From Flectonema sp. DT1601 (taxonomy: Eukaryota): 64,000 nucleotides of DNA. The stretch covers positions 744,001 to 808,000 of the forward strand of contig OZ025792.1 of NCBI GenBank assembly GCA_964019425.1, written 5' to 3'. The translations under genes were made by a program, and so were the position numbers. Positions 1,298-46,477 of this stretch are shown here, piece by piece; positions within the stretch are counted from its first letter, which is position 1, and every line of letters begins with the position of its first letter. The notes beneath the pieces were generated by a model. It was not told the origin of the DNA. It made no database searches and saw only the letters and a list, made by a program, of their open reading frames with translations.

Positions 1298-2356
1298 CCC
1301 CCCTCGTATCCCAGCCTTTCTTTCTTCTATTCTTCTCAAATACATAATGGCTATATTCATTGGGACATAGTTTCGTGGACAGGCTACTTGTAGCGGTCTT
1401 GATAAAGACAAAGTAAAAAAAAAAAAGAAAGAAAAGAAGTATTATTTTTGCAGAGGACGGGCCACTAGATTTCCTCCGAACCGCCTTCGTCGTCGTAATC
1501 TCACATTTTGATGGGGCGGAATGGATTTCTGGCGCTCAACTTACCATTGTTTATTTCTTCCTTAATAATGAATGATGATAAAGTCTGCACGCTTTCTTTT
1601 TTTGTGTCGATGATGATATTTCGAGTTCTCAAATTTATTTTTCTTTTTCTTCCTCTTATATATATTATCAGAAACCCTCAAAGAGCTACATTACTTCCGC
1701 GCTTGAGTTTCGCAGCTTGGATACTGTCCCCTGAGGAAGCATTGAAAAAGTAATTATCATTTCCTTAAGTGGAAAAAAAAAGAAAGGGTCAGTTGTTTAT
1801 TCTAACATGAATAAAAAAATGACTAATTTTTTTTTTTTTTTTTTGCCTTCTTGTATTTAATTGTATTAAAAAAAAAACAATACCTTCTTTGCACTTCGGC
1901 AGGTGCGTCTTGCTTGCTACGTATTTACTGGTCTTGTTCTTTACCTCCTCCTCTTTTTTTTTTTTTCTTTACTCTTTATTTTTATGTTTCTGCGCTATAC
2001 TTCCGAAGAAGCTTGCACTGTCTTGCTGCAGTCTTCAAGTGTAGTAACATTTTATTTTATTTCATTTTTGTGTTCATTCATCGAAACATTACCGTTATCC
2101 CCATCCCTGCCCTCATTACAATGTAAAGGCTTTACGTCTTTATGCAGAGTGTTTTCCTTATATAGTCACTGTATCATAGATAACGTTTTATTTTAGTTAA
2201 CTCTGGTGCAATACAGATATTTATTTTCCTCATAAATGTATTCAAAAAAAACATAGTCAACCTCCCATTGTTGTTCCTTTGAGCTTAAAAAAAAAAATGC
2301 AGTATCAAGTTACCCCCTCCTGCCCTTCGTATTCTGGGGGGGGGGGGGGGGGGGTA

Positions 2357-4329
2357 GGGGGGGGTACAAGCTGTCGATAAAGTACTTTTTCCGAATTTTG
2401 GTAAATATAACCTTCCCGGGGGCAAAAAATACCCAGGACCCCATCAGAACCCCCAAAAATGTGATTTCGGGGCCGAAAAAACCTCGATTTGGCTGATTTC
2501 GGCAAAGGAATGAAAAATCTCAAAAAGTGTGGACCGTGTGGTACCTGGGGGTCCAATTTTGAGGCCTGTGAAATGCACCTTCAAATAATTTTTTTTACAA
2601 TGAGAAGAGGTGAGTCTTGGTGTGCCCCTGTATGCGCAGTTTGCTAATATACCATTTCCGTATCAGTTTCCACCTCAAGAACACGCCACGAAAGAGAGCA
2701 GCGCTCTCGCCCGGCCATGCTTGAGGTCATGAGGCTCACGGGCAGGATAACGCAGCTGAAAACGATGTTCTGCAGGGCAGCTCACAAAGTCATTCTGCGG
2801 AGGAGAGCATTGATCCCAGAGTGCATGAAAACACCTCCCGAGACATCCCTGAAGTCACTCAACAGCACTTGGACAGTCAGAAGTAAGATACGCGTGAGAA
2901 AGGGGTCCAGAAACGTCTAGTATCTGAATCGCGATCACAGAAGGCTCAGAGAATAGAGAAAGCGTCACGTCTGTACCCCAAACAGGGATAAGCCTGAAGA
3001 CAGCTGTAGTGGTAGTGCCTCAAATAGCAGTGCCATAGATAAGCAGCAGCGACTTAGGGCAACATGCCCCATCCAAAAAGCCGTTCAAGGCATCACTTCA
3101 GAAGACCCAACCATACTCACCAGCGGGGCATACAAGACACTCTAGTACATGCAGCATTCGAAGAAGTACGGAAGAGACATCCGCTTGCAACTGTACCCAA
3201 GCGAGGGGGATTTACTCCTAGAGTCTTGGAGTCGTAACTACACTGCAGATATTGCGGCAAGAAGGGATCGGCGCAGAGAGATCCAACAAAGCCCTGAGTG
3301 AGTGACATAGTTGACGTCGCCGGTGCACAGACTGAAGGGAAGCGGGTCGAAGTCCCCGACTATATCTCGAAGGACAGTCCGACATGTTGATGAATTCACA
3401 GGTGATCTGTCAGTGACCTGACTTCTTGAAGCAGCAGCTTCCTCCTCACCCTCCATCACATCGCTGCAACATGATACTTCCTCTAGTGCCCGTCATGCTC
3501 GTGGGCTGAAGCTAACAACCGTGGCGTTCGTTGTCCGCACCCCTCAAGGGATGGGGAGGTTATTCAGTGTGTTGTTGTTGATAGTTCTTAGTCAACTAAC
3601 GGAACCATTGGAGTGAGGGCTGCCCTACTGATAACGTACAACATATTCCGGAGGCACACGGACTTCCAAAGGCTACCACATCAACGCAGGACCACCAACC
3701 CTCTTCAGATTGGCAAGAACAAGCACAACAGGAAGCGCTACAGGGGCTGAAAGTACCACTTCGTCCTCACAGGGAAGACCTCTAGACAGCAAGGCCTAAT
3801 GCTAATCTGCCATCCGCATCCAAGGATTGGTCCTCTGTCTATCTTGTACAGAAAGAAGCACAGCTTCGAGCCGAATTTCGAAAGCTGAGCACATGGGATG
3901 TTCAAGAGAAGGCCAGTAGCCTAAGCATTGAAGATGGGGGAATTAACGACCCGGGTCTGGTGGAGCATATTATTAAGGTTCAAGATGGGTCGATAAAATC
4001 ATAAATTGGGTTCCCATTTCATCCCCCACACAACTCAGAGGGAAACCCTGGTTATGGATTGCTCAATGCACGGAATTACTTATAATTTTTGTGAGCCCTC
4101 CTAACACACCCCTTGTTTTCACCCCCCTCAGGTACCACACGGTCCACACTTTTTGAGATTTTTCAAAGACTTGTTCTAAAGTGCTGAAGAACTGTTTCTT
4201 TGGATCGCAATCCCCATTTTTGGGGTATATGTTGTACTTTTCATAATTTGGGTGCCCAAAAAACTTGTTCTCCGGGAAAAAACCGAAAGTGCCCAAAATC
4301 TCCGTAAAATCGATGCTTGTACCCCCCCC
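2357..4329. mobile_element. ~2-kb TIR-bounded DNA-transposon-like element, non-autonomous or decayed
   Basis: Perfect 15-bp TIR GGGGGGGGTACAAGC (2357-2371 / 4315-4329) with TA on both flanks (2355-56, 4330-31). Perfect 37-bp subterminal inverted repeat 2511-2547 / 4129-4165. The interior is GC-richer with no long ORF. A decayed second copy lies at 26734-29515. Confidence 0.8.
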
Positions 4330-4358
4330 TAGGGGGGGGGGGAAACAAGCATCGATTT

Positions 4359-4635
4359 ATTTTTTTTATTTATGAACATGAAACACAAAGTAACTACATT
4401 CCAGTCCTGCAAACTGGAATGACTCAGTCTCAACATTTGACTGACTTACTTCTACACCATACTGATGAGAGAGAATAGAGGTAAGAGGTATATGGATTAC
4501 TCTCGAAACCTATAGTTACTTTAATATGCTAAGTTGCGCATCACCCTTAGTCACTGTATTTAAAACTAATGTTAAATTATCTTTATGTTTTTATGATACA
4601 ACACAGTTGTAATTTTTACAAAATCGAACATACAT
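4359..4635 (+). mobile_element. Short non-autonomous hammerhead-carrying retroelement, copy B (subfamily B)
   Basis: Homologous to 1024-1297. Flanked by the 23-bp direct repeat CCCCCCTA(G)11AAAC at 4324-4346 and 4636-4658. Confidence 0.8.
4445..4511 (+). ncRNA. Permuted (pseudoknotted) hammerhead ribozyme candidate
   Basis: Stem I CCATA(4457-61)/TATGG(4491-95); CTGATGA 4462-68; stem II GAGAG(4469-73)/CTCTC(4500-04); GAAA 4505-08; stem III ACCT(4508-11)/AGGT(4486-89). GUA cleavage triplet ends at 4490. Extra helix CTTACTTCTA(4445-54)/TAGAGGTAAG(4476-85). Confidence 0.75.
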
Positions 4636-5270
4636 CCCCCCTAGGGGGGGGGGGAAACCAAAAAAAAACAATTCAGGATTAGCCTTATATTTCGTTGATA
4701 CGCACAAGAGAAAATAAATTATGACTAAGAAATAACGGCTTTTCAATCTGAATAGTTTCGTTCTTGGTACAAAAAAAAAAAGGGAAAAAAAAAAAAAAAA
4801 AAAAAAACGAAAATGGACAAAAAGGAGTGCACCTAATCTTTACCTAGCCATTGAAAACCCTACAGGGCAGACCAGCCACAGGATGATGAGTTCTCTTCCA
4901 TTCAATATCACTGATTTTTTTATATTCTTAGCGCACATCATTCGACATTTATTTGTTCCCCGATCTTAACAAACTTCATTTAGCTGCCAGTCCTTCTTGT
5001 CTTTCCCGTTTTCTCCCTCCTCGTTCTTTTTTTTTTTTTTTTTTTTTTTTGAATCCAAATCCACCGATGAAAGCAATGGACCGAAAATTTACAAAAAAAA
5101 AAAAAAAAAAGAAAAAGAAGAAGGCTGTATATAAACTCATCACGTACCTAATCTCCAACAGGAAACTCAAAAATAACGCTGTGAGATTCGCTGAGAGCTT
5201 TTCGTACAGGTAGTAAAAAGAAGAAAATTTATTATTATTATAATTATTATTGTTATCACCCCCCCCCAAC

Positions 5271-5547
5271 TACTTTAATATGCTAAGTTGCGCATCACCC
5301 ATAGTCACTGTATTTAAAACTAATGTTAAATTATCTTTATGTTTTTATGATACAACACAGTTGTAATTTTTACAAAATCGAACATACAAACCCCCCCCCT
5401 ACATTACTCTCGAAACCTAATAGTTACTTTAAAAGGCTACGTTAAGCATCGCACCTAGTCACTGTATCTCAGAACTAATGTTAAATTATCGTTATGTTGT
5501 TTATGATACAATATATTTGTATTTTACGTACAACATCAAACAGTTAA
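5271..5547 (+). mobile_element. Two tandem 5'-truncated copies of the short hammerhead element (B-type 5271-5390, A-type 5403-5547)
   Basis: Near-identical to the 3' parts of copies B and A respectively. Each ends at a C-tract. CCCCCCAAC flanks the pair (5262-5270 / 5548-5556). Confidence 0.75.
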
Positions 5548-5643
5548 CCCCCCAACAGGTACAGCGAGTAATCGGATCATGTAAAGAGAAAGTGATCAAA
5601 AAAAAAAAAAAAAAAAAAAAACTATTTTCGTTCCAAAGACAAT

Positions 5644-7965: not shown

Positions 7966-8239
7966 TGTACTCTCCTTTGGTAGGTTAGCAGTCATGTTAT
8001 CAATTCTTATTTACATAGCAATCCAATGTAGTATTTCTATGCTACCGTTTTTGTTATTAGACAGCCGTGATTGATCTACTAGTATCGGTACAGTTTAATA
8101 TTTTTCTATTTTCAGTTACATAAAAATTATTAGAAAATCGTTGGACGTGACAGCGGGTGGAAAAGTCTTTTAATTCCTTTTCTTACTTTTGTATTCTCGC
8201 ATCTTCATATTACTCTATACAGTTTATCTTACTTAAAAT

Positions 8240-10219
8240 ATGATTTCTTCAATAGCTGTTATCGTCACCATCGCTATTTCTCAAAGGCCGTGTGATTCCT
8301 ACACGAATTTGAGAAGCTGCAGAAGAGCAGTGTGCCCAGATCTTTCTAATCAACAATGTTCTTGGATTAGATCTACGAGGGAGTGCAGATGTGTGAAACC
8401 TTCTTGTGATGACTTCTCGACTCCAAATCATTGTCAGACAGCCAATTGCCCAGACCAAGAAGGTCGTCAGTGCCTCTGGACTAATAACGGATGTAAGTGC
8501 AACACCGCTCCAAGAACCTGTGCTGACTTCTCGAGTCAAGCTGATTGTCAGACAGCCAATTGCCCAGACCAAGAAGGTCGTCAGTGCCTCTGGACTAATA
8601 ATGGATGTAAGTGCAACACCGCTCCAAGAACCTGTGCTGACTACTCAAGTCAAGCTGATTGTCAGACAGCCAATTGCCCAGACCAAGAAGGTCGTCAGTG
8701 CCTCTGGACTAATAACAGATGTAAGTGCAACACTGATCCAAGAACCTGTGCTGACTTCTCGAGTCAAGCTGATTGTCAGACAGCCAATTGCCCAGACCAA
8801 GAAGGTCGTCAGTGCCTCTGGACTAATAACGGATGTAAGTGCAACACTGATCCAAGAACCTGTGCTGACTACTCAAGTCAAGCTGATTGTCAGACAGCCA
8901 ATTGCCCAGACCAAGAAGGTCGTCAGTGCCTCTGGACTAATAACGGATGTAAGTGCAACACTGATCCAAGAACCTGTGCTGACTTCTCGAGTCAAGGTGA
9001 TTGTCAGACAGCCAATTGCCCAGACCAAGAAGGTCGTCAGTGCCTCTGGACTAATAACGGATGTAAGTGCAACACTGATCCAAGAACCTGTGCTGACTTC
9101 TCGAGTCAAGGTGATTGTCAGACAGCCAATTGCCCAGACCAAGAAGGTCGTCAGTGCCTCTGGACTAATAACGGATGTAAATGTAACACCGATCCAAGAA
9201 CCTGTGCTGACTTCTCGAGTCAAGGTGATTGTCAGACAGCCAATTGCCCAGACCAAGAAGGTCGTCAGTGCCTCTGGACTAATAACGGATGTAAGTGCAA
9301 CACTGATCCAAGAACCTGTGCTGACTTCTCGAGTCAAGCTGATTGTCAGACAGCCAATTGCCCAGACCAAGAAGGTCGTCAGTGCCTCTGGACTAATAAC
9401 GGATGTAAGTGCAACACTGATCCAAGAACCTGTGCTGACTACTCAAGTCAAGCTGATTGTCAGACAGCCAATTGCCCAGACCAAGAAGGTCGTCAGTGCC
9501 TCTGGACTAATAACGGATGTAAGTGCAACACTGATCCAAGAACCTGTGCTGACTACTCAAGTCAAGCTGATTGTCAGACAGCCAATTGCCCAGACCAAGA
9601 AGGTCGTCAGTGCCTCTGGACTAATAACGGATGTAAGTGCAACACTGATCCAAGAACCTGTGCTGACTTCTCGAGTCAAGCTGATTGTCAGACAGCCAAT
9701 TGCCCAGACCAAGAAGGTCGTCAGTGCCTCTGGACTAATAACAGATGTAAGTGCAACACTGATCCAAGAACCTGTGCTGACTACTCAAGTCAAGCTGATT
9801 GTCAGACAGCCAATTGCCCAGACCAAGAAGGTCGTCAGTGCCTCTGGACTAATAACGGATGTAAGTGCAACACTGATCCAAGAACCTGTGCTGACTTCTC
9901 GAGTCAAGCTGATTGTCAGACAGCCAATTGCCCAGACCAAGAAGGTCGTCAGTGCCACTGGACTAATAAGGGATGTAAGTGCAACACCGCTCCAAGAACC
10001 TGTGCTGACTTCTCGAGTCAAGCTGATTGTCAGACAGCCAATTGCCCAGACCAAGAAGGTCGTCAGTGCCTCTGGACTAATAACGGATGTAAGTGCAACA
10101 CTGATCCAAGAACCTGTGCTGACTTCTCGAGTCAAGCTGATTGTCAGACAGCCAATTGCCCAGACCAAGAAGGTCGTCAGTGCCTCTGGACTAATAACGG
10201 ATGTAAGTGCAAGAAGTGA
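8240..10219 (+). CDS. Putative secreted Cys-rich tandem-repeat protein, copy 1 (16 x 38-aa units + 1 divergent N-terminal unit)
   Basis: ATG follows a pyrimidine tract and AG (8221-22). Short hydrophobic leader MISSIAVIVTIAIS. 114-bp unit with C-x8-C-x4-C-x7-C-x-W-x4-C-x-C. Ends KCKK. Confidence 0.85.
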   Translation: MISSIAVIVTIAISQRPCDSYTNLRSCRRAVCPDLSNQQCSWIRSTRECRCVKPSCDDFSTPNHCQTANCPDQEGRQCLWTNNGCKCNTAPRTCADFSSQADCQTANCPDQEGRQCLWTNNGCKCNTAPRTCADYSSQADCQTANCPDQEGRQCLWTNNRCKCNTDPRTCADFSSQADCQTANCPDQEGRQCLWTNNGCKCNTDPRTCADYSSQADCQTANCPDQEGRQCLWTNNGCKCNTDPRTCADFSSQGDCQTANCPDQEGRQCLWTNNGCKCNTDPRTCADFSSQGDCQTANCPDQEGRQCLWTNNGCKCNTDPRTCADFSSQGDCQTANCPDQEGRQCLWTNNGCKCNTDPRTCADFSSQADCQTANCPDQEGRQCLWTNNGCKCNTDPRTCADYSSQADCQTANCPDQEGRQCLWTNNGCKCNTDPRTCADYSSQADCQTANCPDQEGRQCLWTNNGCKCNTDPRTCADFSSQADCQTANCPDQEGRQCLWTNNRCKCNTDPRTCADYSSQADCQTANCPDQEGRQCLWTNNGCKCNTDPRTCADFSSQADCQTANCPDQEGRQCHWTNKGCKCNTAPRTCADFSSQADCQTANCPDQEGRQCLWTNNGCKCNTDPRTCADFSSQADCQTANCPDQEGRQCLWTNNGCKCKK

Positions 10220-11543
10220 AGCTGGGTATAATTGCCGATTGATGTAGTCAGCGGTGTATTGTATGTCGTGTTGGTTTATAAGATCTGTGTTTTTATATTT
10301 TGCATCTTGCATAAACCGATCGGAGTGGCCATGTCGTGAGAATTGATTTTTATTAAATTAGATAAAATGCTTTAAGGATGAGAACCATGGAGAACTGTGT
10401 TGATTAACATATTAAGTGTGTGAAGAAGTATTGTTAATTGTTGTGAAATGGATGATGGTGTTTTCTCTTTGAAGTCTTCTATGAGTGTTTTAGATAGTTT
10501 GGTATAATTAATTCGTGTTTTATGTATTAGTCGCTGTTATTTTTTTTTATATATTTTTATCGCTCACCTGGTTTAAGTAGTGATGAATGCACTCTGTATT
10601 TAGTAGGATGTTGTTGCTTCTTCTTGTGCGGTGTGATCATGACTCTTCATTTTACTCTCTCACGACGGTATCTTTTTGTATGACATTTAGACAACTGTTT
10701 TAACTAACAATTCAGAAACTGATTGTTCATTGCTCTTTTTTCCTTCCTTGTCGGTTTTTCTAATTCCGTTCCCTAGCTTTTCCTGGAATACACTTCTTCA
10801 GGGGAATGAAATATTACAATATATGTTGTATTATTTGAGTATCGGTAGCATTGGACTGAAGTTAATTCATTCCAACCTACTGAGTTACCTGCTTATGCTT
10901 CTCATGTTATAGTGCAATGTTGGATAAAATCTGACTTATTTCTTCCTCGAGGGTGTTGTTGAGCACCGCTGTAGTTTTCCTCTTCTTCTTCCTCTGTTTA
11001 GATGGATACATGTCTCTGAAAGAGTTGTTGAAGTGAGTGGAAATCTTAGTCGGTGTCTGTTGTAGCCATCTTTACTACGTTGATTTTGTTATTCTTTCTT
11101 CTTTCTAATACTCGAATTAACAAAATGTCGATTCCATGATGAGCAGTGAAAGGTTTCGTATTTGGTCCTTGTAATTCATTATAACATAGGAATCGTACAA
11201 AACATGTCGCGTGGTATTGCTCACAAAATAAGAGTGTCTCTGCTACAGTTGACCAGTTCCTTTAGTATTAGTTTTTGGAAGGAAAATCATAACTATTTAA
11301 TTCCGTGTACGCTGCTTGTTGTTATTTGTCGTTGTTATTCAGTAACTAATATCTTTTAAAGTTCACAGCTCTGATTGATTTACTAGTATCGGTACTGTTT
11401 TATAATCATCAATTTTCATGTACATAAAAATTATAAGAACATCGTTGGACTTTACAGCGGGTGGAAAAGTCTTTGACTTTCTTTTCTTACTTTTGTATTC
11501 TCGCATCTTCATATTACTCTATACAGTTTTCCTTACTTAAAAT
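10220..11543. repeat. Intergenic spacer of the triplicated Cys-repeat gene unit
   Basis: Essentially identical to 14322-15645, and over its first ~1140 bp to 20134-21274. Confidence 0.9.
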
Positions 11544-14321
11544 ATGATTTCTTCAATAGCTGTTATCGTCACCATCGCTATTTCTCAAAGGCCGTGTGAT
11601 TCCTACACGAATTTGAGAAGCTGCAGAAGAGCAGTGTGCCCAGATCTTTCTAATCAACAATGTTCTTGGATTAGATCTACGAGGGAGTGTAGATGTGTGA
11701 AACCTTCTTGCGATGACTTCTCGAGTCAAGCTGATTGTCAGACAGCCAATTGCCCAGACCAAGAAGGTCGTCAGTGCCTCTGGACTAATAGGGGATGTAA
11801 GTGCAACACCGCTCCAAGAACCTGTGCTGACTTCTCGAGTCAAGGTGATTGTCAGACAGCCAATTGCCCAGACCAAGAAGGTCGTCAGTGCCTCTGGACT
11901 AATAACGGATGTAAATGTAACACCGATCCAAGAACCTGTGCTGACTTCTCGAGTCAAGCTGATTGTCAGACAGCCAATTGCCCAGACCAAGAAGGTCGTC
12001 AGTGCCTCTGGACTAATAACAGATGTAAGTGCAACACTGATCCAAGAACCTGTGCTGACTTCTCGAGTCAAGGTGATTGTCAGACAGCCAATTGCCCAGA
12101 CCAAGAAGGTCGTCAGTGCCTCTGGACTAATAACGGATGTATATGTAACACCGATCCAAGAACCTGTGCTGACTTCTCGAGTCAAGCTGATTGTCAGACA
12201 GCCAATTGCCCAGACCAAGAAGGTCGTCAGTGCCTCTGGACTAATAACAGATGTAAGTGCAACACTGATCCAAGAACCTGTGCTGACTTCTCGAGTCAAG
12301 CTGATTGTCAGACAGCCAATTGCCCAGACCAAGAAGGTCGTCAGTGCCTCTGGACTAATAACAGATGTAAGTGCAACACTGATCCAAGAACCTGTGCTGA
12401 CTACTCAAGTCAAGCTGATTGTCAGACAGCCAATTGCCCAGACCAAGAAGGTCGTCAGTGCCTCTGGACTAATAACGGATGTAAATGTAACACCGATCCA
12501 AGAACCTGTGCTGACTTCTCGAGTCAAGGTGATTGTCAGACAGCCAATTGCCCAGACCAAGAAGGTCGTCAGTGCCTCTGGACTAATAACGGATGTAAGT
12601 GCAACACTGATCCAAGAACCTGTGCTGACTTCTCGAGTCAAGCTGATTGTCAGACAGCCAATTGCCCAGACCAAGAAGGTCGTCAGTGCCTCTGGACTAA
12701 TAACGGATGTAAGTGCAACACTGATCCAAGAACCTGTGCTGACTACTCAAGTCAAGCTGATTGTCAGACAGCCAATTGCCCAGACCAAGAAGGTCGTCAG
12801 TGCCTCTGGACTAATAACGGATGTAAGTGCAACACTGATCCAAGAACCTGTGCTGACTTCTCGAGTCAAGCTGATTGTCAGACAGCCAATTGCCCAGACC
12901 AAGAAGGTCGTCAGTGCCTCTGGACTAATAACGGATGTAAGTGCAACACTGATCCAAGAACCTGTGCTGACTACTCAAGTCAAGCTGATTGTCAGACAGC
13001 CAATTGCCCAGACCAAGAAGGTCGTCAGTGCCTCTGGACTAATAACGGATGTAAGTGCAACACTGATCCAAGAACCTGTGCTGACTACTCAAGTCAAGCT
13101 GATTGTCAGACAGCCAATTGCCCAGACCAAGAAGGTCGTCAGTGCCTCTGGACTAATAACGGATGTAAGTGCAACACTGATCCAAGAACCTGTGCTGACT
13201 TCTCGAGTCAAGCTGATTGTCAGACAGCCAATTGCCCAGACCAAGAAGGTCGTCAGTGCCTCTGGACTAATAACGGATGTAAGTGCAACACTGATCCAAG
13301 AACCTGTGCTGACTTCTCGAGTCAAGCTGATTGTCAGACAGCCAATTGCCCAGACCAAGAAGGTCGTCAGTGCCTCTGGACTAATAACAGATGTAAGTGC
13401 AACACTGATCCAAGAACCTGTGCTGACTACTCAAGTCAAGCTGATTGTCAGACAGCCAATTGCCCAGACCAAGAAGGTCGTCAGTGCCTCTGGACTAATA
13501 ACGGATGTAAGTGCAACACTGATCCAAGAACCTGTGCTGACTTCTCGAGTCAAGCTGATTGTCAGACAGCCAATTGCCCAGACCAAGAAGGTCGTCAGTG
13601 CCTCTGGACTAATAACAGATGTAAGTGCAACACTGATCCAAGAACCTGTGCTGACTACTCAAGTCAAGCTGATTGTCAGACAGCCAATTGCCCAGACCAA
13701 GAAGGTCGTCAGTGCCTCTGGACTAATAACGGATGTAAGTGCAACACTGATCCAAGAACCTGTGCTGACTTCTCGAGTCAAGCTGATTGTCAGACAGCCA
13801 ATTGCCCAGACCAAGAAGGTCGTCAGTGCCTCTGGACTAATAACAGATGTAAGTGCAACACTGATCCAAGAACCTGTGCTGACTACTCAAGTCAAGCTGA
13901 TTGTCAGACAGCCAATTGCCCAGACCAAGAAGGTCGTCAGTGCCTCTGGACTAATAACGGATGTAAGTGCAACACTGATCCAAGAACCTGTGCTGACTTC
14001 TCGAGTCAAGCTGATTGTCAGACAGCCAATTGCCCAGACCAAGAAGGTCGTCAGTGCCACTGGACTAATAACGGATGTAAGTGCAACACCGCTCCAAGAA
14101 CCTGTGCTGACTTCTCGAGTCAAGGTGATTGTCAGACAGCCAATTGCCCAGACCAAGAAGGTCGTCAGTGCCTCTGGACTAATAACAGATGTAAGTGCAA
14201 CACTGATCCAAGAACCTGTGCTGACTTCTCGAGTCAAGCTGATTGTCAGACAGCCAATTGCCCAGACCAAGAAGGTCGTCAGTGCCTCTGGACTAATAAC
14301 GGATGTAAGTGCAAGAAGTGA
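11544..14321 (+). CDS. Putative secreted Cys-rich tandem-repeat protein, copy 2 (23 units)
   Basis: 925 aa = 55 + 22x38 + 34. Same leader and end as copy 1. Confidence 0.85.
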   Translation: MISSIAVIVTIAISQRPCDSYTNLRSCRRAVCPDLSNQQCSWIRSTRECRCVKPSCDDFSSQADCQTANCPDQEGRQCLWTNRGCKCNTAPRTCADFSSQGDCQTANCPDQEGRQCLWTNNGCKCNTDPRTCADFSSQADCQTANCPDQEGRQCLWTNNRCKCNTDPRTCADFSSQGDCQTANCPDQEGRQCLWTNNGCICNTDPRTCADFSSQADCQTANCPDQEGRQCLWTNNRCKCNTDPRTCADFSSQADCQTANCPDQEGRQCLWTNNRCKCNTDPRTCADYSSQADCQTANCPDQEGRQCLWTNNGCKCNTDPRTCADFSSQGDCQTANCPDQEGRQCLWTNNGCKCNTDPRTCADFSSQADCQTANCPDQEGRQCLWTNNGCKCNTDPRTCADYSSQADCQTANCPDQEGRQCLWTNNGCKCNTDPRTCADFSSQADCQTANCPDQEGRQCLWTNNGCKCNTDPRTCADYSSQADCQTANCPDQEGRQCLWTNNGCKCNTDPRTCADYSSQADCQTANCPDQEGRQCLWTNNGCKCNTDPRTCADFSSQADCQTANCPDQEGRQCLWTNNGCKCNTDPRTCADFSSQADCQTANCPDQEGRQCLWTNNRCKCNTDPRTCADYSSQADCQTANCPDQEGRQCLWTNNGCKCNTDPRTCADFSSQADCQTANCPDQEGRQCLWTNNRCKCNTDPRTCADYSSQADCQTANCPDQEGRQCLWTNNGCKCNTDPRTCADFSSQADCQTANCPDQEGRQCLWTNNRCKCNTDPRTCADYSSQADCQTANCPDQEGRQCLWTNNGCKCNTDPRTCADFSSQADCQTANCPDQEGRQCHWTNNGCKCNTAPRTCADFSSQGDCQTANCPDQEGRQCLWTNNRCKCNTDPRTCADFSSQADCQTANCPDQEGRQCLWTNNGCKCKK

Positions 14322-15645
14322 AGCTGGGTATAATTGCCGATTGATGTAGTCAGCGGTGTATTGTATGTCGTGTTGGTTTATAAGATCTGTGTTTTTATAT
14401 TTTGCATCTTGCATAAACCGATCGGAGTGGCCATGTCGTGAGAATTGATTTTTATTAAATTAGATAAAATGCTTTAAGGATGAGAACCATGGAGAACTGT
14501 GTTGATTAACATATTAAGTGTGTGAAGAAGTATTGTTAATTGTTGTGAAATGGATGATGGTGTTTTCTCTTTGAAGTCTTCTATGAGTGTTTTAGATAGT
14601 TTGGTATAATTAATTCGTGTTTTATGTATTAGTCGCTGTTATTTTTTTTTATATATTTTTATCGCTCACCTGGTTTAAGTAGTGATGAATGCACTCTGTA
14701 TTTAGTAGGATGTTGTTGCTTCTTCTTGTGCGGTGTGATCATGACTCTTCATTTTACTCTCTCACGACGGTATCTTTTTGTATGACATTTAGACAACTGT
14801 TTTAACTAACAATTCAGAAACTGATTGTTCATTGCTCTTTTTTCCTTCCTTGTCGGTTTTTCTAATTCCGTTCCCTAGCTTTTCCTGGAATACACTTCTT
14901 CAGGGGAATGAAATATTACAATATATGTTGTATTATTTGAGTATCGGTAGCATTGGACTGAAGTTAATTCATTCCAACCTACTGAGTTACCTGCTTATGC
15001 TTCTCATGTTATAGTGCAATGTTGGATAAAATCTGACTTATTTCTTCCTCGAGGGTGTTGTTGAGCACCGCTGTAGTTTTCCTCTTCTTCTTCCTCTGTT
15101 TAGATGGATACATGTCTCTGAAAGAGTTGTTGAAGTGAGTGGAAATCTTAGTCGGTGTCTGTTGTAGCCATCTTTACTACGTTGATTTTGTTATTCTTTC
15201 TTCTTTCTAATACTCGAATTAACAAAATGTCGATTCCATGATGAGCAGTGAAAGGTTTCGTATTTGGTCCTTGTAATTCATTATAACATAGGAATCGTAC
15301 AAAACATGTCGCGTGGTATTGCTCACAAAATAAGAGTGTCTCTGCTACAGTTGACCAGTTCCTTTAGTATTAGTTTTTGGAAGGAAAATCATAACTATTT
15401 AATTCCGTGTACGCTGCTTGTTGTTATTTGTCGTTGTTATTCAGTAACTAATATCTTTTAAAGTTCACAGCTCTGATTGATTTACTAGTATCGGTACTGT
15501 TTTATAATCATCAATTTTCATGTACATAAAAATTATAAGAACATCGTTGGACTTTACAGCGGGTGGAAAAGTCTTTGACTTTCTTTTCTTACTTTTGTAT
15601 TCTCGCATCTTCATATTACTCTATACAGTTTTCCTTACTTAAAAT

Positions 15646-18600
15646 ATGATTTCTTCAATAGCTGTTATCGTCACCATCGCTATTTCTCAAAGGCCGTGTG
15701 ATTCCTACACGAATTTGAGAAGCTGCAGAAGAGCAGTGTGCCCAGATCTTTCTAATCAACAATGTTCTTGGATTAGATCTACGAGGGAGTGTAGATGTGT
15801 GAAACCTTCTTGCGATGACTTCTCGAGTCAAGCTGATTGTCAGACAGCCAATTGCCCAGACCAAGAAGGTCGTCAGTGCCTCTGGACTAATAGGGGATGT
15901 AAGTGCAACACCGCTCCAAGAACCTGTGCTGACTTCTCGAGTCAAGGTGATTGTCAGACAGCCAATTGCCCAGACCAAGAAGGTCGTCAGTGCCTCTGGA
16001 CTAATAACGGATGTAAATGTAACACCGATCCAAGAACCTGTGCTGACTTCTCGAGTCAAGCTGATTGTCAGACAGCCAATTGCCCAGACCAAGAAGGTCG
16101 TCAGTGCCTCTGGACTAATAACAGATGTAAGTGCAACACTGATCCAAGAACCTGTGCTGACTTCTCGAGTCAAGGTGATTGTCAGACAGCCAGTTGCCCA
16201 GACCAAGAAGGTCGTCAGTGCCTCTGGACTAATAACGGATGTAAGTGCAACACCGCTCCAAGAACCTGTGCTGACTTCTCGAGTCAAGCTGATTGTCAGA
16301 CAGCCAATTGCCCAGACCAAGAAGGTCGTCAGTGCCTCTGGACTAATAACGGATGTAAGTGCAACACTGATCCAAGAACCTGTGCTGACTACTCAAGTCA
16401 AGCTGATTGTCAGACAGCCAATTGCCCAGACCAAGAAGGTCGTCAGTGCCTCTGGACTAATAACGGATGTAAGTGCAACACTGATCCAAGAACCTGTGCT
16501 GACTTCTCGAGTCAAGCTGATTGTCAGACAGCCAATTGCCCAGACCAAGAAGGTCGTCAGTGCCTCTGGACTAATAACGGATGTAAGTGCAACACCGCTC
16601 CAAGAACCTGTGCTGACTTCTCGAGTCAAGCTGATTGTCAGACAGCCAATTGCCCAGACCAAGAAGGTCGTCAGTGCCTCTGGACTAATAACGGATGTAA
16701 GTGCAACACTGATCCAAGAACCTGTGCTGACTACTCAAGTCAAGCTGATTGTCAGACAGCCAATTGCCCAGACCAAGAAGGTCGTCAGTGCCTCTGGACT
16801 AATAACAGATGTAAGTGCAACACTGATCCAAGAACCTGTGCTGACTTCTCGAGTCAAGCTGATTGTCAGACAGCCAATTGCCCAGACCAAGAAGGTCGTC
16901 AGTGCCTCTGGACTAATAACGGATGTAAGTGCAACACCGCTCCAAGAACCTGTGCTGACTTCTCGAGTCAAGCTGATTGTCAGACAGCCAATTGCCCAGA
17001 CCAAGAAGGTCGTCAGTGCCTCTGGACTAATAACGGATGTAAGTGCAACACTGATCCAAGAACCTGTGCTGACTACTCAAGTCAAGCTGATTGTCAGACA
17101 GCCAATTGCCCAGACCAAGAAGGTCGTCAGTGCCTCTGGACTAATAACGGATGTAAGTGCAACACTGATCCAAGAACCTGTGCTGACTTCTCGAGTCAAG
17201 CTGATTGTCAGACAGCCAATTGCCCAGACCAAGAAGGTCGTCAGTGCCTCTGGACTAATAACGGATGTAAGTGCAACACTGATCCAAGAACCTGTGCTGA
17301 CTTCTCGAGTCAAGCTGATTGTCAGACAGCCAATTGCCCAGACCAAGAAGGTCGTCAGTGCCTCTGGACTAATAACAGATGTAAGTGCAACACTGATCCA
17401 AGAACCTGTGCTGACTTCTCGAGTCAAGCTGATTGTCAGACAGCCAATTGCCCAGACCAAGAAGGTCGTCAGTGCCTCTGGACTAATAACGGATGTAAGT
17501 GCAACACTGATCCAAGAACCTGTGCTGACTTCTCGAGTCAAGCTGATTGTCAGACAGCCAATTGCCCAGACCAAGAAGGTCGTCAGTGCCTCTGGACTAA
17601 TAACGGATGTAAGTGCAACACTGATCCAAGAACCTGTGCTGACTACTCAAGTCAAGCTGATTGTCAGACAGCCAATTGCCCAGACCAAGAAGGTCGTCAG
17701 TGCCTCTGGACTAATAACGGATGTAAGTGCAACACTGATCCAAGAACCTGTGCTGACTTCTCGAGTCAAGCTGATTGTCAGACAGCCAATTGCCCAGACC
17801 AAGAAGGTCGTCAGTGCCTCTGGACTAATAACGGATGTAAGTGCAACACTGATCCAAGAACCTGTGCTGACTTCTCGAGTCAAGCTGATTGTCAGACAGC
17901 CAATTGCCCAGACCAAGAAGGTCGTCAGTGCCTCTGGACTAATAACGGATGTAAGTGCAACACCGCTCCAAGAACCTGTGCTGACTTCTCGAGTCAAGCT
18001 GATTGTCAGACAGCCAATTGCCCAGACCAAGAAGGTCGTCAGTGCCTCTGGACTAATAACGGATGTAAGTGCAACACTGATCCAAGAACCTGTGCTGACT
18101 ACTCAAGTCAAGCTGATTGTCAGACAGCCAATTGCCCAGACCAAGAAGGTCGTCAGTGCCTCTGGACTAATAACGGATGTAAGTGCAACACTGATCCAAG
18201 AACCTGTGCTGACTTCTCGAGTCAAGCTGATTGTCAGACAGCCAATTGCCCAGACCAAGAAGGTCGTCAGTGCCTCTGGACTAATAACAGATGTAAGTGC
18301 AACACTGATCCAAGAACCTGTGCTGACTTCTCGAGTCAAGCTGATTGTCAGACAGCCAATTGCCCAGACCAAGAAGGTCGTCAGTGCCTCTGGACTAATA
18401 ACGGATGTAAGTGCAACACTGATCCAAGAACCTGTGCTGACTTCTCGAGTCAAGCTGATTGTCAGACAGCCAATTGCCCAGACCAAGAAGGTCGTCAGTG
18501 CCTCTGGACTAATAACGGATGTAAGTGCAACACTGATCCAAGAACCTGTGCTGACTACTCAAGTCAAGCTGATTGTCAGACAGCCAATTGCCCAGACCAA

Positions 18601-20133
18601 GAAGGTCGTCAGTGCCTCTGGACTAATAACGGATGTAAGTGCAACACTGATCCAAGAACCTGTGCTGACTTCTCGAGTCAAGCTGATTGTCAGACAGCCA
18701 ATTGCCCAGACCAAGAAGGTCGTCAGTGCCTCTGGACTAATAACAGATGTAAGTGCAACACTGATCCAAGAACCTGTGCTGACTTCTCGAGTCAAGCTGA
18801 TTGTCAGACAGCCAATTGCCCAGACCAAGAAGGTCGTCAGTGCCTCTGGACTAATAACGGATGTAAGTGCAACACTGATCCAAGAACCTGTGCTGACTTC
18901 TCGAGTCAAGCTGATTGTCAGACAGCCAATTGCCCAGACCAAGAAGGTCGTCAGTGCCTCTGGACTAATAACGGATGTAAGTGCAACACTGATCCAAGAA
19001 CCTGTGCTGACTACTCAAGTCAAGCTGATTGTCAGACAGCCAATTGCCCAGACCAAGAAGGTCGTCAGTGCCTCTGGACTAATAACGGATGTAAGTGCAA
19101 CACTGATCCAAGAACCTGTGCTGACTTCTCGAGTCAAGCTGATTGTCAGACAGCCAATTGCCCAGACCAAGAAGGTCGTCAGTGCCTCTGGACTAATAAC
19201 AGATGTAAGTGCAACACTGATCCAAGAACCTGTGCTGACTTCTCGAGTCAAGCTGATTGTCAGACAGCCAATTGCCCAGACCAAGAAGGTCGTCAGTGCC
19301 TCTGGACTAATAACGGATGTAAGTGCAACACTGATCCAAGAACCTGTGCTGACTTCTCGAGTCAAGCTGATTGTCAGACAGCCAATTGCCCAGACCAAGA
19401 AGGTCGTCAGTGCCTCTGGACTAATAACGGATGTAAGTGCAACACTGATCCAAGAACCTGTGCTGACTACTCAAGTCAAGCTGATTGTCAGACAGCCAAT
19501 TGCCCAGACCAAGAAGGTCGTCAGTGCCTCTGGACTAATAACGGATGTAAGTGCAACACTGATCCAAGAACCTGTGCTGACTACTCAAGTCAAGCTGATT
19601 GTCAGACAGCCAATTGCCCAGACCAAGAAGGTCGTCAGTGCCTCTGGACTAATAACGGATGTAAGTGCAACACTGATCCAAGAACCTGTGCTGACTTCTC
19701 GAGTCAAGCTGATTGTCAGACAGCCAATTGCCCAGACCAAGAAGGTCGTCAGTGCCTCTGGACTAATAACAGATGTAAGTGCAACACTGATCCAAGAACC
19801 TGTGCTGACTTCTCGAGTCAAGCTGATTGTCAGACAGCCAATTGCCCAGACCAAGAAGGTCGTCAGTGCCTCTGGACTAATAACGGATGTAAATGTAACA
19901 CCGATCCAAGAACCTGTGCTGACTTCTCGAGTCAAGCTGATTGTCAGACAGCCAATTGCCCAGACCAAGAAGGTCGTCAGTGCCTCTGGACTAATAACGG
20001 ATGTAAGTGCAACACTGATCCAAGAACCTGTGCTGACTTCTCGAGTCAAGCTGATTGTCAGACAGCCAATTGCCCAGACCAAGAAGGTCGTCAGTGCCTC
20101 TGGACTAATAACGGATGTAAGTGCAAGAAGTGA
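15646..20133 (+). CDS. Putative secreted Cys-rich tandem-repeat protein, copy 3 (38 units)
   Basis: 1495 aa = 55 + 37x38 + 34. Same leader and end. Confidence 0.85.
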   Translation: MISSIAVIVTIAISQRPCDSYTNLRSCRRAVCPDLSNQQCSWIRSTRECRCVKPSCDDFSSQADCQTANCPDQEGRQCLWTNRGCKCNTAPRTCADFSSQGDCQTANCPDQEGRQCLWTNNGCKCNTDPRTCADFSSQADCQTANCPDQEGRQCLWTNNRCKCNTDPRTCADFSSQGDCQTASCPDQEGRQCLWTNNGCKCNTAPRTCADFSSQADCQTANCPDQEGRQCLWTNNGCKCNTDPRTCADYSSQADCQTANCPDQEGRQCLWTNNGCKCNTDPRTCADFSSQADCQTANCPDQEGRQCLWTNNGCKCNTAPRTCADFSSQADCQTANCPDQEGRQCLWTNNGCKCNTDPRTCADYSSQADCQTANCPDQEGRQCLWTNNRCKCNTDPRTCADFSSQADCQTANCPDQEGRQCLWTNNGCKCNTAPRTCADFSSQADCQTANCPDQEGRQCLWTNNGCKCNTDPRTCADYSSQADCQTANCPDQEGRQCLWTNNGCKCNTDPRTCADFSSQADCQTANCPDQEGRQCLWTNNGCKCNTDPRTCADFSSQADCQTANCPDQEGRQCLWTNNRCKCNTDPRTCADFSSQADCQTANCPDQEGRQCLWTNNGCKCNTDPRTCADFSSQADCQTANCPDQEGRQCLWTNNGCKCNTDPRTCADYSSQADCQTANCPDQEGRQCLWTNNGCKCNTDPRTCADFSSQADCQTANCPDQEGRQCLWTNNGCKCNTDPRTCADFSSQADCQTANCPDQEGRQCLWTNNGCKCNTAPRTCADFSSQADCQTANCPDQEGRQCLWTNNGCKCNTDPRTCADYSSQADCQTANCPDQEGRQCLWTNNGCKCNTDPRTCADFSSQADCQTANCPDQEGRQCLWTNNRCKCNTDPRTCADFSSQADCQTANCPDQEGRQCLWTNNGCKCNTDPRTCADFSSQADCQTANCPDQEGRQCLWTNNGCKCNTDPRTCADYSSQADCQTANCPDQEGRQCLWTNNGCKCNTDPRTCADFSSQADCQTANCPDQEGRQCLWTNNRCKCNTDPRTCADFSSQADCQTANCPDQEGRQCLWTNNGCKCNTDPRTCADFSSQADCQTANCPDQEGRQCLWTNNGCKCNTDPRTCADYSSQADCQTANCPDQEGRQCLWTNNGCKCNTDPRTCADFSSQADCQTANCPDQEGRQCLWTNNRCKCNTDPRTCADFSSQADCQTANCPDQEGRQCLWTNNGCKCNTDPRTCADFSSQADCQTANCPDQEGRQCLWTNNGCKCNTDPRTCADYSSQADCQTANCPDQEGRQCLWTNNGCKCNTDPRTCADYSSQADCQTANCPDQEGRQCLWTNNGCKCNTDPRTCADFSSQADCQTANCPDQEGRQCLWTNNRCKCNTDPRTCADFSSQADCQTANCPDQEGRQCLWTNNGCKCNTDPRTCADFSSQADCQTANCPDQEGRQCLWTNNGCKCNTDPRTCADFSSQADCQTANCPDQEGRQCLWTNNGCKCKK

Positions 20134-26469: not shown

Positions 26470-27464
26470 GTAGAAACAACGAAGTTAGTTCGTACTTGGT
26501 CAATGAGTTTCCGATTTTATTTCCATAATCCGATATCCCTTTACACTTTGTGAGTATTGCACCCATTATTACAAGCATTATCTAACTACTGTCTGTGTTA
26601 ATATTTTCCCCACAATTACTTTCATTAGGTTCTACTCACGGTTGATATGTTCTCATCGTGTTGGATAATTTATTGTATTCTCACTTCGTCACTGTTAGCT
26701 GATTATTATATTTAATTGTCTTTAATAGATTTTCCAAATTATAAAAATTGCAACACATACCCGATTGCGATCCAAAGAAACAGCTCTTGGGAGCTTTAGA
26801 ATTTTTTTTTGAAAAATCTCAAAATGTGTGGACCGTGTGGTAACTGAGGGGGTGAAAACAAGGGGTGTGTTAGGAGGCTTCACAAGAATTATAAGTTATT
26901 CTGTGCATTGAGCAATCAATAACCAGGGTTTCCCTCTGAGTTGAGTGGGAGATGAAAAGGGAACCGAAATTTTATTCTTATCGACCTGATTTGAACTTTA
27001 ATAATGTGCTGAACCGGCATTCCCCATGTTCGACCAGATTACTGTTTTAAGTACCTAAAGTTGTTACTGTTTTTTACATTATCGAAGTTTCACCCTATGT
27101 TCGATCAGTTTGACAACGTCTTCTGGTCAGTAAGACAAACAATATAATTTTCCCTTTTATGTTTTCTTTTTTAGCATCCCTCCTTTTTTTCTTTTTTGGG
27201 GTTTTCGTTTTATCATCATCAATATCAACTTCCTTTCCCCTCCCCAACTTTGTTAGTTTGCTAGCGAACCGGTCAAGTCCGAAACATTGAGGTATTCGTG
27301 TCTCTCGAACATTAGAATTCCTCGCTTACGCTAAAAAAGTGATCCTCTCAGGGATTACATAATGTTGTAGTATTGGGGACTCACAGGTGGTTAACCGTTC
27401 CACCCTGTCGTGTCTATCTAACCGGTACTCAATTGTATGTCGAGCTCGCTAACTAACGGAGGAC

Positions 27465-29400
27465 ATGTATGGAATACAAACGTTATTGGATAGTCGAATC
27501 TGATAAAGATGTAGCTGCTGATATTAAATTAAACACAACTCGACTAAAAAGCCTATCTCCCAAAACACACGACTTCACTACGATGTATACACGACTCCCC
27601 CCACCAGGAGATCAAAGATAAAGTGAATGAAGCAATTAAAGAAGCATTCGAATTCAAGAACATCATGCGACTTGAATCTAATGACCCTGCGACCTACCGT
27701 GCTTTATCACAGTTGGAATGTAGAGCGCTTCTAGGCTTTTGTGTGGATAATTCTCTAATATCAATGAGAGGAAAACTATGGAGACAAGTAGTTGGCACTC
27801 CCATGGGCGGCAATGCAAGTAGCGATATAGCTATTCTCTGCTGTTACAGAATCGAATCTAAATTTATGGATGACCTTGTAGCGAAAGGAGAGTTAGATTT
27901 AGCACGCAAACACGACTACTCTTGCCGGTACATAGACGATTTCCTTACATGCAACCCACCAGCAGAATTATATTCCAACTGAACTACACCGAGACCTCTA
28001 ATGGTATTGATGATGTTTCATACATCGGAATTAGAATCCGAATCGAAACCACAAAATCAAACAACAGATGGATACGTCTTAGCGTTAACGACAAAGCGCG
28101 TAGATGGCACATAATACCAACAAGATTCACTCACCAGCACTTGGCTGCTCAAGAATCGATGGGTACTGGTATCTTCACCACCATGCTCCTACGAGCACTC
28201 AGAATCTGTAATAATCAGACAGATCTTCTACAAGAGTTCGAGTTCGTAACATACAGACTACTCAACCGAAGATACAAGTTTAAGAACCTCGCAGTAGCTT
28301 GTCACAGCTTTATCAACTTATATATTGACGATGGCAATGTTGCAGCTGCAATTCGAAGACGTCTAAATATTACTTCCGAAAGGTTTAATCATGGTATCCC
28401 TGTAAGCGATGAAAAAGACACCATTAATCATAAAAGTTCCACACTTCACACCTTAGACAAACGATTCCCAATACAATCACATCAATCTTCAGGGGAAGGT
28501 CTAATTGGAGGTGAGTGTGGATGGGCATCGCTGAATTTTGTTGCAGACCATCTTTATCTTGACCGAATAAATTTCAGCTATTTACAAGAACTACAACAAA
28601 CATTCTACGAAGAACATCAAAAAGTAGAAGCTGGCAGCAGCAAGCAAAGACCATCCCCGGATGGTCTTTGCTTGTTGCTGCCAGCTGGTTCTCTTTAACC
28701 GTGCTGGGGGTAGCAAGCAAACAAGAACTCAACAGGGAAATCCACCAGTATGAAGATCCCAGTTCTATGGACTACCCAGCAATAGCCGCCGCATTCATTT
28801 TAAACAAAGCTGGTGCTAGAATGTCACACTACATAGTGGCCCTTGTCTCCTTTGATTCCATTATTGTACAGACCGGCGATTATCATTCGACCATTTTGAC
28901 AGACATTTTAAACGCCCAGAATATTGTTTTCACATGATTTTAAGAAAAACTCTGCAGGGTAATAATAATGATAACGACTGTACCATGGCACCCTCGAATG
29001 AAGGAATTCTACTCCTCACCAACACTAAGGAAAAGCGCAAGAAAGACGACTACAGCTCCGATGAAGGAGAACTCGCACTCGTAATAAAACGAACAGATGT
29101 AGAAGAGATAGAACGCTGATCAAAAGCAAATATATGCTAGCCCGTCCTGGCGAGCTCCGATGGACATTAAGAAATCAGTTCTTTTGAAATAGACCAATTG
29201 ATGGATCCGATTTATTATTTAACTGGAATGAAGTCCCTAGAACTTACTGATGAAGGCCTAAGAGGGACAAGTAGTATAAGATTAAGGCCTGAAACTACGT
29301 ATTCCGCAGTGTATTATGGAACAGCAGAACAATGTGTTTTTATAATTTTTCTTTTTTTTATATTTTAATTTAGTGCACTTTTTTATAATAAACTCATATT
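27465..29400 (+). mobile_element. 5'-truncated, frameshifted Penelope-like retroelement (RT + putative Josephin-like domain + 3' hammerhead)
   Basis: RT motifs across frames: YWIVES, HDFTTMYTRLP, GTPMGGNAS, RYIDD, YIGIRI, LLRALRIC. Flanked by the 16-bp direct repeat CTAACTAACGGAGGAC (27449-27464 / 29401-29416), whose 3' copy continues into host-element sequence. Confidence 0.85.
29233..29298 (+). ncRNA. Permuted (pseudoknotted) hammerhead ribozyme candidate in the PLE 3' UTR
   Basis: Stem I CTTA(29243-46)/TAAG(29277-80); CTGATGA 29247-53; stem II AGGCCT(29254-59)/AGGCCT(29285-90); GAAA 29291-94; stem III ACTAC(29294-98)/GTAGT(29271-75). GUA triplet ends at 29276. Extra helix GTCCCT(29233-38)/AGGGAC(29263-68). 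Confidence 0.8.
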
Positions 29401-29632
29401 CTAACTAACGGAGGACCAATCCTTGATTAGAATTAGACGTACTGACTGCGCTGGACTTCAACTATGTCACTCAGGACTTTGTAGGATCTCTCTACGCTGA
29501 TCCCTTCTTGCTGCTATCACGAGATCATTGCGAACCTGACTTTCTAATATTCTGACCGTAGATGTTTGTTTGCCATTTATTAGTATTTGTGGATCACAGT
29601 GTGACTATTTATTATTCTGAACAGATAATAAT

Positions 29633-45169: not shown

Positions 45170-46142
45170 TTAATAATTTTTTTTTTTTCAATTTTTTTAA
45201 GTTAAAAAAGCAGCGAGCCTGCGTGTTTCCTGACAGACATCAACCATAATGATACGGCTGTCAGGTTTAATCAATTATTGGGCAGCGTACATTCAATACA
45301 GGCGATTCATTTCATCTTTTTTATGACATTTTCTTGTGAGTTTGTTTTGCACTACTCAAGCAGGCGATTTTTTCGTAGCAAAGACTGCGCGCGAAATCCA
45401 CGTTTGTGATGCTTCTCATGCTATGTTGTTGTTGTTCTTTTATTTGTATTGCGAGAAAGTTACCCGCTGCTCAATAGTTGAGATGCACTCTTTTCCCCTA
45501 TTCTTTTTAAGTAGTTGTCGTAATGTTTAGCATCCTAACGTAAGTCTCATCCGGTTGGAGTTGGTGTTGTTTCACGAGGTGTATGAATAAGTTAATGATA
45601 GTTTTTATTTATTGATCTATTTATTTTTTTGCATTTTTATAACCTTTTTTCTTTTGACACAAGTCTGTCTGCTGCATAACTCGCTACGTCGTTGTCTCTA
45701 AGTTGGTGTAAGCACCTCAAGGTCAACGACTTGTTTGTACGGCGAGACTTCTCGGTCGCAGCTTCCAATCCTTTAAGCATCATGTTTCTTGTGACTCTAA
45801 CCAACAGGAAGCAATCGAGGTGCTGTCAGGATTTGGGTACTGCGGTTGTATTAAATAAACGTAACAAGAGTCAACCGTTCGACTGAATTCTAGTTCTTGT
45901 TTGTGTTGTTTTGTTCTATAGTTGCCTTCAGGGTTTTTTATAATATTATTCTTCTTTTGTGGAATGGTGGCATTTATGTTTCATAAAGAAAGGATTCATT
46001 TATTACTCTCGTCTCCCCCCTTGTGACATGTTTGTCTATGTCTCTGGACAAGGTGGATATGTTCTTCAGCTAAACACAATCTCAGTGATTGAGTCTACCC
46101 AAACCCTGCAGTCATCAGTTCTTATCTTTGTTTACTAATCGA

Positions 46143-46477
46143 ACGAAAAGATTCTACTCCTCACTGGCAGTAATGAAAAGCTCAAGAAAGACGATTCCAG
46201 CTCTGAAGAAATAGCCGCACTCGTCGTTAAGGTGGGCAGCAATTAAAGAGATAGAACTCAGCTGATCAAAAGCAAAATATAATTGTTTGCCCGTCCTGAC
46301 GACTCCGATAGACATTAAGAAATCAGTTCTATTGAAATAGACAATAAACTGGAATGCAGTCCCGAACTTACTAACGAACCTACCCACTAAATGGAGCAGA
46401 AGATTTGTGTTTTATTAACTTTTTTTTTTTATCTTTGATTCAGTGCACTTCCTTATAACAAAACTCATATTCTAACT
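46143..46477 (+). mobile_element. Diverged 3' fragment of the Penelope-like element
   Basis: Aligns by eye to ~29000-29406, including the terminal AAACTCATATTCTAACT. The hammerhead region is deleted or degenerate. Confidence 0.8.

Follow-up and report, generated by a model that had tools for sequence, protein, structure and literature searches.

A probable type-CSG hammerhead ribozyme close to the 3ʹ end of a Chlamys-type Penelope-like element and in a second repeat family of Flectonema sp. DT1601

The window analyzed here is a 64,000-nucleotide stretch of DNA from Flectonema sp. DT1601 (assembly GCA_964019425.1, contig OZ025792.1, positions 744,001 to 808,000 of the forward strand), and all coordinates refer to it. 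Genes for membrane adenylate/guanylate cyclases, near-identical in their catalytic parts and variable in their N-terminal parts, form a tandem array at 5596–42480, the first of them matching the Pfam model Guanylate_cyc. Three genes of 38-residue cysteine-rich repeats, built from a 114-bp unit present in 77 copies in register, lie at 8237–20133. At 2511–4165 lies an element that is bounded by 41-bp terminal inverted repeats and lacks a long ORF, and related pieces are found at 26734–27010 and 29454–29517. The window also holds two families of short insertions, termed A and B (Table 1). All six of their pieces (1023–46477) lie on the plus strand, as do the long host ORFs, a bias that is statistically weak given five independent events. 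Sharing the strand of the host ORFs, the pieces would be transcribed as part of host polycistronic RNA.

Table 1. Features of families A and B in the window, and candidate type-CSG folds read by eye in nematode Naiad consensus sequences (Craig et al. 2021, PMC8557442)
Feature	Position	Strand	Details
Penelope-like element, assigned to Chlamys type	27466–29406	+	5ʹ-truncated, frameshifted; 3ʹ end 130 nt past predicted cut
Broken RT/thumb/C-terminal coding region	27475–28937	+	three frames; motifs A, B and C present
Target-site duplication, left copy	27449–27464	+	16 bp
Target-site duplication, right copy	29401–29416	+	16 bp; overlaps element end by 6 nt
Family A copy A2	46139–46477	+	3ʹ part of element; mutated core, ribozyme mostly deleted
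Predicted type-CSG hammerhead, family A copy A1	29233–29298	+	predicted cut after 29276
A1 outer helix P0	29225–29305	+	29225–29230 with 29300–29305, 6 bp
A1 helix P4	29233–29238 with 29263–29268	+	6 bp, no mismatches
A1 stem I	29243–29246 with 29277–29280	+	4 bp
A1 CUGAUGA	29247–29253	+
A1 stem II	29254–29259 with 29285–29290	+	6 bp
A1 stem III	29271–29275 with 29294–29298	+	5 bp
A1 cleavage triplet GUA	29274–29276	+
A1 GAAA	29291–29294	+
Family B copy B2	4365–4642	+	~280-bp non-coding repeat, ends in C-run; 23-bp duplication (4324–4346, 4636–4658)
B2 larger folded domain	4387–4522	+	P0 of 10 bp; hairpins h1 (9 bp), h2 (6 bp); ribozyme last
Predicted type-CSG hammerhead, B2	4445–4511	+	P4 10 bp (one G-U), stems I 5, II 5, III 4 bp; GUA 4488–4490; predicted cut after 4490
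Family B copy B1	1023–1304	+	83% identical to B2; ~70-bp duplication (963–1031, 1286–1360)
Predicted type-CSG hammerhead, B1	1103–1169	+	slightly damaged; predicted cut after 1148
Family B fragment B4	5271–5395	+	3ʹ fragment, B2-like (97.6%), without ribozyme
Family B fragment B3	5403–5553	+	3ʹ fragment, B1-like (94.7%); starts ≤5 nt from predicted cut
Naiad_Parc			P4/I/II/III = 11/6/5/12 bp
Naiad-1_Nbra			P4/I/II/III = 11/5/5/11 bp
Naiad-2_Nbra			P4/I/II/III = 12/5/5/6 bp
Naiad-3_Nbra			P4/I/II/III = 9/4-5/4/6 bp
Naiad_Hcon			P4/I/II/III = 13/6/5/9 bp
Naiad_Hpol			P4/I/II/III = 16/5/5/7 bp

Self-comparison places family A at 28994–29406 and 46139–46477; the second, decayed copy was absent from the initial annotation, as were the two family B 3ʹ fragments at 5271–5553. 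The insert between the 16-bp duplications around the first copy measures 1.9 kb and carries a frameshifted reverse transcriptase (RT), the middle piece of which is 94% identical to the sequence P0001. The nearest named RT relatives are Diplonema papillatum proteins (38–43% identity), which makes the host probably a diplonemid or a related euglenozoan. Spacing between motifs A and B (IFD), measured in P0001, P0004 and relatives without a canonical Penelope-like element (PLE) alongside, is 71 aa in the first two and 63–99 aa in those relatives that yielded both motifs. A GIY-YIG domain lies upstream of the RT in 7 of 13 relatives scanned, the truncated window copy having no N-terminal half, and a CxC motif is present in 9 of 25; the relatives have DK with a variable third residue and an endonuclease core without the CCHH cysteines. 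In the supplement text of Craig et al. 2021 that was available, the RT motif A heptapeptide occurs once, in Chlamys-1_cBra, and the endonuclease motif of this element also matches the RT relatives. Based on the RT remnants, the duplication and the motifs of the relatives, the insert is therefore classed as a 5ʹ-truncated Chlamys-type PLE, by motifs rather than by a tree. Truncation at the 5ʹ end, a fixed 3ʹ end and partial tandems, all traits of Naiad and Chlamys elements, are seen here, and a full pLTR-ORF-pLTR unit is absent from the window. Pfam gave no RT match on the window fragments, and alignment of the RT to viral contigs returned no relatives. An independent contig of run X1 reproduces the tail at 29133–29408 with four differences, two gaps and the same 3ʹ end; the differences listed all fall outside the ribozyme.

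Several further features of family A can be recorded. The PLE copy sits between two pieces related to the element at 2511–4165. Within the RT coding region, 28627–28688 is an inverted duplication, near-perfect and absent from P0001, that accounts for a weak miRNA-like Rfam match. The tail contains a long T-rich tract followed by AG (29330–29375, 46405–46445), resembling a trans-splice acceptor, and the ribozyme-less A2 ends ~260 nt ahead of a host ORF start. The RT relatives P0008, P0010, P0027 and P0030 carry a C-terminal ubiquitin-hydrolase-like domain, and some are annotated as host deubiquitinases.

Family B is likely a non-autonomous repeat. The initial annotation had described two retroelement families; this is borne out for A by its duplication and RT remnants, whereas no RT linked to family B lies within the window, and the retroelement nature of B is inferred from copies that share a fixed 3ʹ end, from truncation at the 5ʹ end and from the duplications at their flanks. 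These duplications start in C-runs, and a C-run target preference has been reported for Chlamys (PMC8557442). The B4 and B3 fragments, which belong to two B subfamilies, lie head to tail within a single 9-bp duplication (5262, 5548), as expected from an RT template jump. At the 5ʹ junction of B2 (4309–4358), an inverted copy of flanking DNA around C and G runs forms a hairpin. The copies in the window are dispersed except for this one fragment pair, with no tandem arrays. In run X1, family B is represented by two 3ʹ pieces, one of which stops at the same C-run, and no family B ribozyme was found there. Homology between the A and B 3ʹ tails was considered and rejected, as none was detected and 860 of 2,000 shuffles scored as well; similarity is borderline for the 5ʹ parts and the ribozymes (17 and 49 of 2,000 shuffles, respectively).

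Both families contain the parts of a hammerhead in an unusual order. In A1, the first half runs from the 5ʹ strand of P4 through the 5ʹ strand of stem I, CUGAUGA and the 5ʹ strand of stem II to the 3ʹ strand of P4; the second half runs from the 5ʹ strand of stem III with GUA through the 3ʹ strand of stem I, ATTA, the 3ʹ strand of stem II and GAAAC to the 3ʹ strand of stem III. The B2 copy has the same layout in different letters, and in both copies every helix is free of mismatches and stems I, II and III directly adjoin the core. The core itself (CUGAnGA, GAAA and a UH site with A15.1-U16.1) is kept in all three window copies, whose core halves are 36–37 nt apart. Complete hammerheads had initially been annotated at all three sites; those at 29233 and 4445 are intact, but the one at 1103 has one A too many where stem I meets CUGAUGA, a stem II of 4 bp plus a mismatch, and a broken outer P4 pair. 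The fourth helix proposed in that annotation forms in both families. Of the linkers described as identical, ATTA is indeed shared, whereas the one after stem II is AAG or AA according to the family.

The non-circularly permuted, pseudoknotted A-C-B order of the initial annotation held up. A descriptor covering all six block orders matches the whole window twice, both times in the order C-S-G, compared with 0.01 matches per window on 100 dinucleotide shuffles; the damaged B1 copy is not recovered. Neither A1 nor B2 has the C-G-S circular order with a pseudoknot-free core that defines types I, II and III, and a search for a canonical type I or III parse found none in either. The expectation that standard models miss this fold was likewise borne out, as Rfam returns no hammerhead match over the window at E ≤ 1. 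When the core letters are fixed, three stems are reached by 0 of 200,000 shuffles for the 29233 copy and 1 of 200,000 for the 4445 copy, and four helices by none for either. Helix sequences differ between the families while pairing is preserved: 5 of 11 aligned core pairs are changed on both sides and 33 of 33 cells are paired, in a three-row alignment that includes two close relatives. This comparison excluded P4 as well as the distal pairs of stem II, where the alignment runs out of register. Within family B, the differences between B1 and B2 inside the ribozyme are only breaks or G-U pairs, with no compensatory changes. Stem I of A1 has a duplex energy of +0.3 kcal, being only 4 bp long, and nested folding of family A, in which pseudoknots are outside the model, gives no signal (z of -0.1 and -1.9). 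Taken from sequence, the hammerhead fold at these sites is almost certainly real, and it is quite likely that the predicted ribozyme would cleave in vitro.

An outer fifth helix, P0, not part of the initial annotation, is present in both families, where its 3ʹ strand begins 1 nt past the 3ʹ strand of stem III. The B2 domain that it closes folds with a z of -5.3 (0 of 200 shuffles), and in its hairpin h1, B1 differs from B2 by two compensatory changes and one break. The 11-mer said to precede the ribozyme in both families is real (1 of 5,000 shuffles, for a word chosen after the fact), but it sits 26 nt ahead of the core in one family and 50 nt in the other. In A it forms the 5ʹ strand of P0, in B2 one arm of a hairpin, and B1 does not retain it; because the partners differ and the word is lost in B1, it is not counted as a signal, and its standing as a conserved one is doubtful.

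Other sequence collections were scanned with simpler patterns. A loose pattern hit at least 120 loci in viral contigs, with one weak spurious match and none real among the matches listed. Tighter patterns gave 8 viral, 26 metagenome and 18 prokaryote loci, the metagenome pattern being one that excludes stem I of the published ribozymes CSG-1/2. All stems formed at 0 of these 52 loci, and an RT match lay near 0 of 52; therefore, the pattern alone does not give the fold.

The topology is already in print. The A-C-B order, with the same fourth helix, is that of type CSG, which Eckert et al. 2023 (PMC10085705) defined from two unique soil metagenome sequences. These two sequences share the fourth helix and cleave at the predicted site at 0.004–0.03 per min, and the parts of the paper available state no genomic context for them; its authors found type CSG in no genome of a known organism. 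The class rested on two similar sequences and modest covariation, which its authors considered weaker than the case for type SGC. A Penelope-like context for the topology was not found in print: a search for permuted hammerheads linked to PLEs returned none, in a literature whose subscription part was mostly beyond its reach. Naiad and most Chlamys elements have been stated to be without canonical hammerheads (Craig et al. 2021, PMC8557442), and the same paper lists eight 'HHR_half_core' cases with core halves 35–50 nt apart. For a canonical Poseidon element, the available text of another study reports that hammerhead mutants inserted normally in vitro and that no reads ended at the cleavage site (PMC11167929), which speaks against cleavage being required.

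The consensus file of Craig et al. (PMC8557442) contains further candidate instances of this fold. The file was read by eye, so that counts are not computed, and each tail was credited to whichever family precedes the following header when families are taken in metadata order. The places viewed cover 60 of 62 occurrences of CTGATGA, 23 of 23 of CTGACGA, 25 of 25 of CTGAGGA and 10 of 43 of CTGAAGA, in a format whose line breaks can hide motifs, together with the last ~600 nt of six families. By this reading, six of eight nematode Naiads hold complete four-helix CSG folds with differing helix sequences, and three of the eight 'HHR_half_core' cases are complete CSG folds. A seventh complete fold, with one extra U after the core, belongs to Naiad_Asuum or Naiad_Ptep (File S5, part 16). 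No CSG fold was seen in the last ~600 nt of Naiad_Ppac and Naiad_Asuum or in the Chlamys consensus passages viewed. Several non-nematode Naiad tails appear by eye to have the same cyclic order opened between CUGAUGA and stem II, such that the 5ʹ strand of stem II comes first and CUGAUGA last.

The preferred reading, to which we assign a probability of roughly 0.7, is that a type-CSG fold in the 3ʹ tail of a Chlamys-type element, and in a second repeat, cuts after GUA and likely frees element RNA from read-through or tandem transcripts. Cleavage would occur after 29276 and 4490, and perhaps after 1148, the chemistry being extrapolated from the core and from CSG-1/2. P4 may dock stems I and II in place of the loop-loop contact of ordinary hammerheads, which would allow a single RNA to fold and cleave without a partner, probably at a low rate. 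The ribozyme in the upstream tail of a partial tandem could release the following unit's 5ʹ end from host polycistronic RNA, and slow cleavage would leave the downstream tail uncut long enough to be copied. The fixed 3ʹ end of the element lies 130–156 nt downstream of the predicted cut, and it is here that the RT would start, on uncut or re-joined RNA; integrated copies would keep the ribozyme whole because of such a template. The A1, B1, B2 and X1 copies retain both sides of the predicted cut and thus point to templates that were uncut or re-joined. B3 may record an RT that ran off a cleaved RNA and then jumped to another template, as the fragment starts close to the cut with a second fragment ahead of it; B3 is weak evidence because, among ~6 truncated copies seen (B3, B4, A2 and three X1 pieces), it is the only one that starts near the cut. 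A role in the processing of element RNA is judged likely, at little better than even odds.

The alternatives differ in what follows folding. An active ribozyme could yield RNA that is re-joined into unit-length, retrozyme-like circles, on which the RT would start internally and cross the junction, with family B as a retrozyme-like parasite. Such circles would account for fixed 3ʹ ends and partial tandems as well as for ribozymes that stay intact; both ends are common to B1 and B2, which are ~280 bp long and non-coding, and the ~70-bp flanking repeat of B1 opens with a copy of the 3ʹ end of the element itself. Animal non-LTR retrozymes are reported to derive from PLE tails, and internal RT initiation has been shown for a Poseidon element (PMC11167929). 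However, the flanking repeats of B1, B2 and B3/B4 are wholly different (70, 23 and 9 bp), so target duplications fit them better than part of a circle, and the absence of tandem B arrays from the window also tells against circles, which we regard as a possible but clearly less probable route.

It is rather unlikely that the fold, while real, works mainly in pairs or as an RT-binding structure, with cleavage dispensable for jumping. All catalytic letters are kept in two window and six nematode families whose helices are fully different, stem II of family B is not palindromic, and stem III is long enough for a monomer. Against these points, the palindromic stem II of family A could swap between molecules and its stem I is short, PLE hammerheads are described as often weak, dimeric or protein-dependent, and lack of a ribozyme did not keep A2 and the 3ʹ fragments from moving or persisting. 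That the arrangement is a chance set of short complementary words around a common heptamer is very improbable: CUGANGA is frequent in the window and 1 of 100 shuffled windows gave a CSG match, but two unrelated-looking families each reach four helices at 0 of 200,000 shuffles and share their layout with the tested ribozymes CSG-1/2 and six nematode elements.

Should the preferred reading of a cleaving fold in PLE tails hold, type CSG gains a home, and two window families together with six or seven nematode ones would settle its biological reality. It would also correct the stated property of Naiad and Chlamys elements of having no canonical hammerhead (PMC8557442), at least as worded in the available text, open a ribozyme role in Penelope-like transposition to testing in a clade that was believed to manage without ribozymes, and supply many natural templates for structural work on pseudoknotted hammerheads. 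A broader and tentative proposal is that non-circularly permuted hammerheads are ancestral and clade-wide in PLEs with an N-terminal endonuclease, from euglenozoan Chlamys-type elements to nematode Naiads, that CSG-1/2 are pieces of such elements, and that cut-and-rejoin circles explain the 3ʹ end and partial tandems. If this were true, type CSG would be an abundant genomic ribozyme class rather than a two-sequence oddity.

Among known systems, the closest in fold is the pair CSG-1/2, which was the match when the window copies were set against published non-circularly permuted hammerheads. Compared by eye with Supplementary Figure 10, the layout is the same, including AUUA after the 3ʹ strand of stem I and the fourth helix, whereas all helix sequences differ, the window copies have GUA in place of GUC, a stem I of 4–5 bp rather than 6 bp and an additional P0, and they reside in a eukaryotic retroelement rather than in soil metagenome DNA. 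Naiad and Chlamys PLEs, with Chlamys-1/4/6_cBra nearest, resemble the element in RT motif A, the IFD and 5ʹ truncation, in the GIY-YIG and CxC motifs of its relatives and, for family B, in insertion at C-runs; the ribozyme near the 3ʹ end is a likeness to other PLEs. Unlike that clade as described, without a canonical hammerhead, the window copy carries a permuted one, and it lacks the N-terminal half, so that only the relatives show the endonuclease. The type I hammerheads found in canonical PLEs and in non-LTR retrozymes (PMC4209133, bioRxiv 10.64898/2026.07.22.740005) have the same core, a terminal-repeat position and short non-coding derivatives in common with the window copies; they form a three-way junction with a short stem III and are often dimeric, whereas the window copies have pseudoknot-crossed strands and a stem III of 4–5 bp. 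Type SGC and the core-opened Naiad variant share the cyclic order C, S, G and a short linker that joins stem I to stem II but are opened at another point; in the window copies, CUGAUGA is joined to stem II and no splint is needed.
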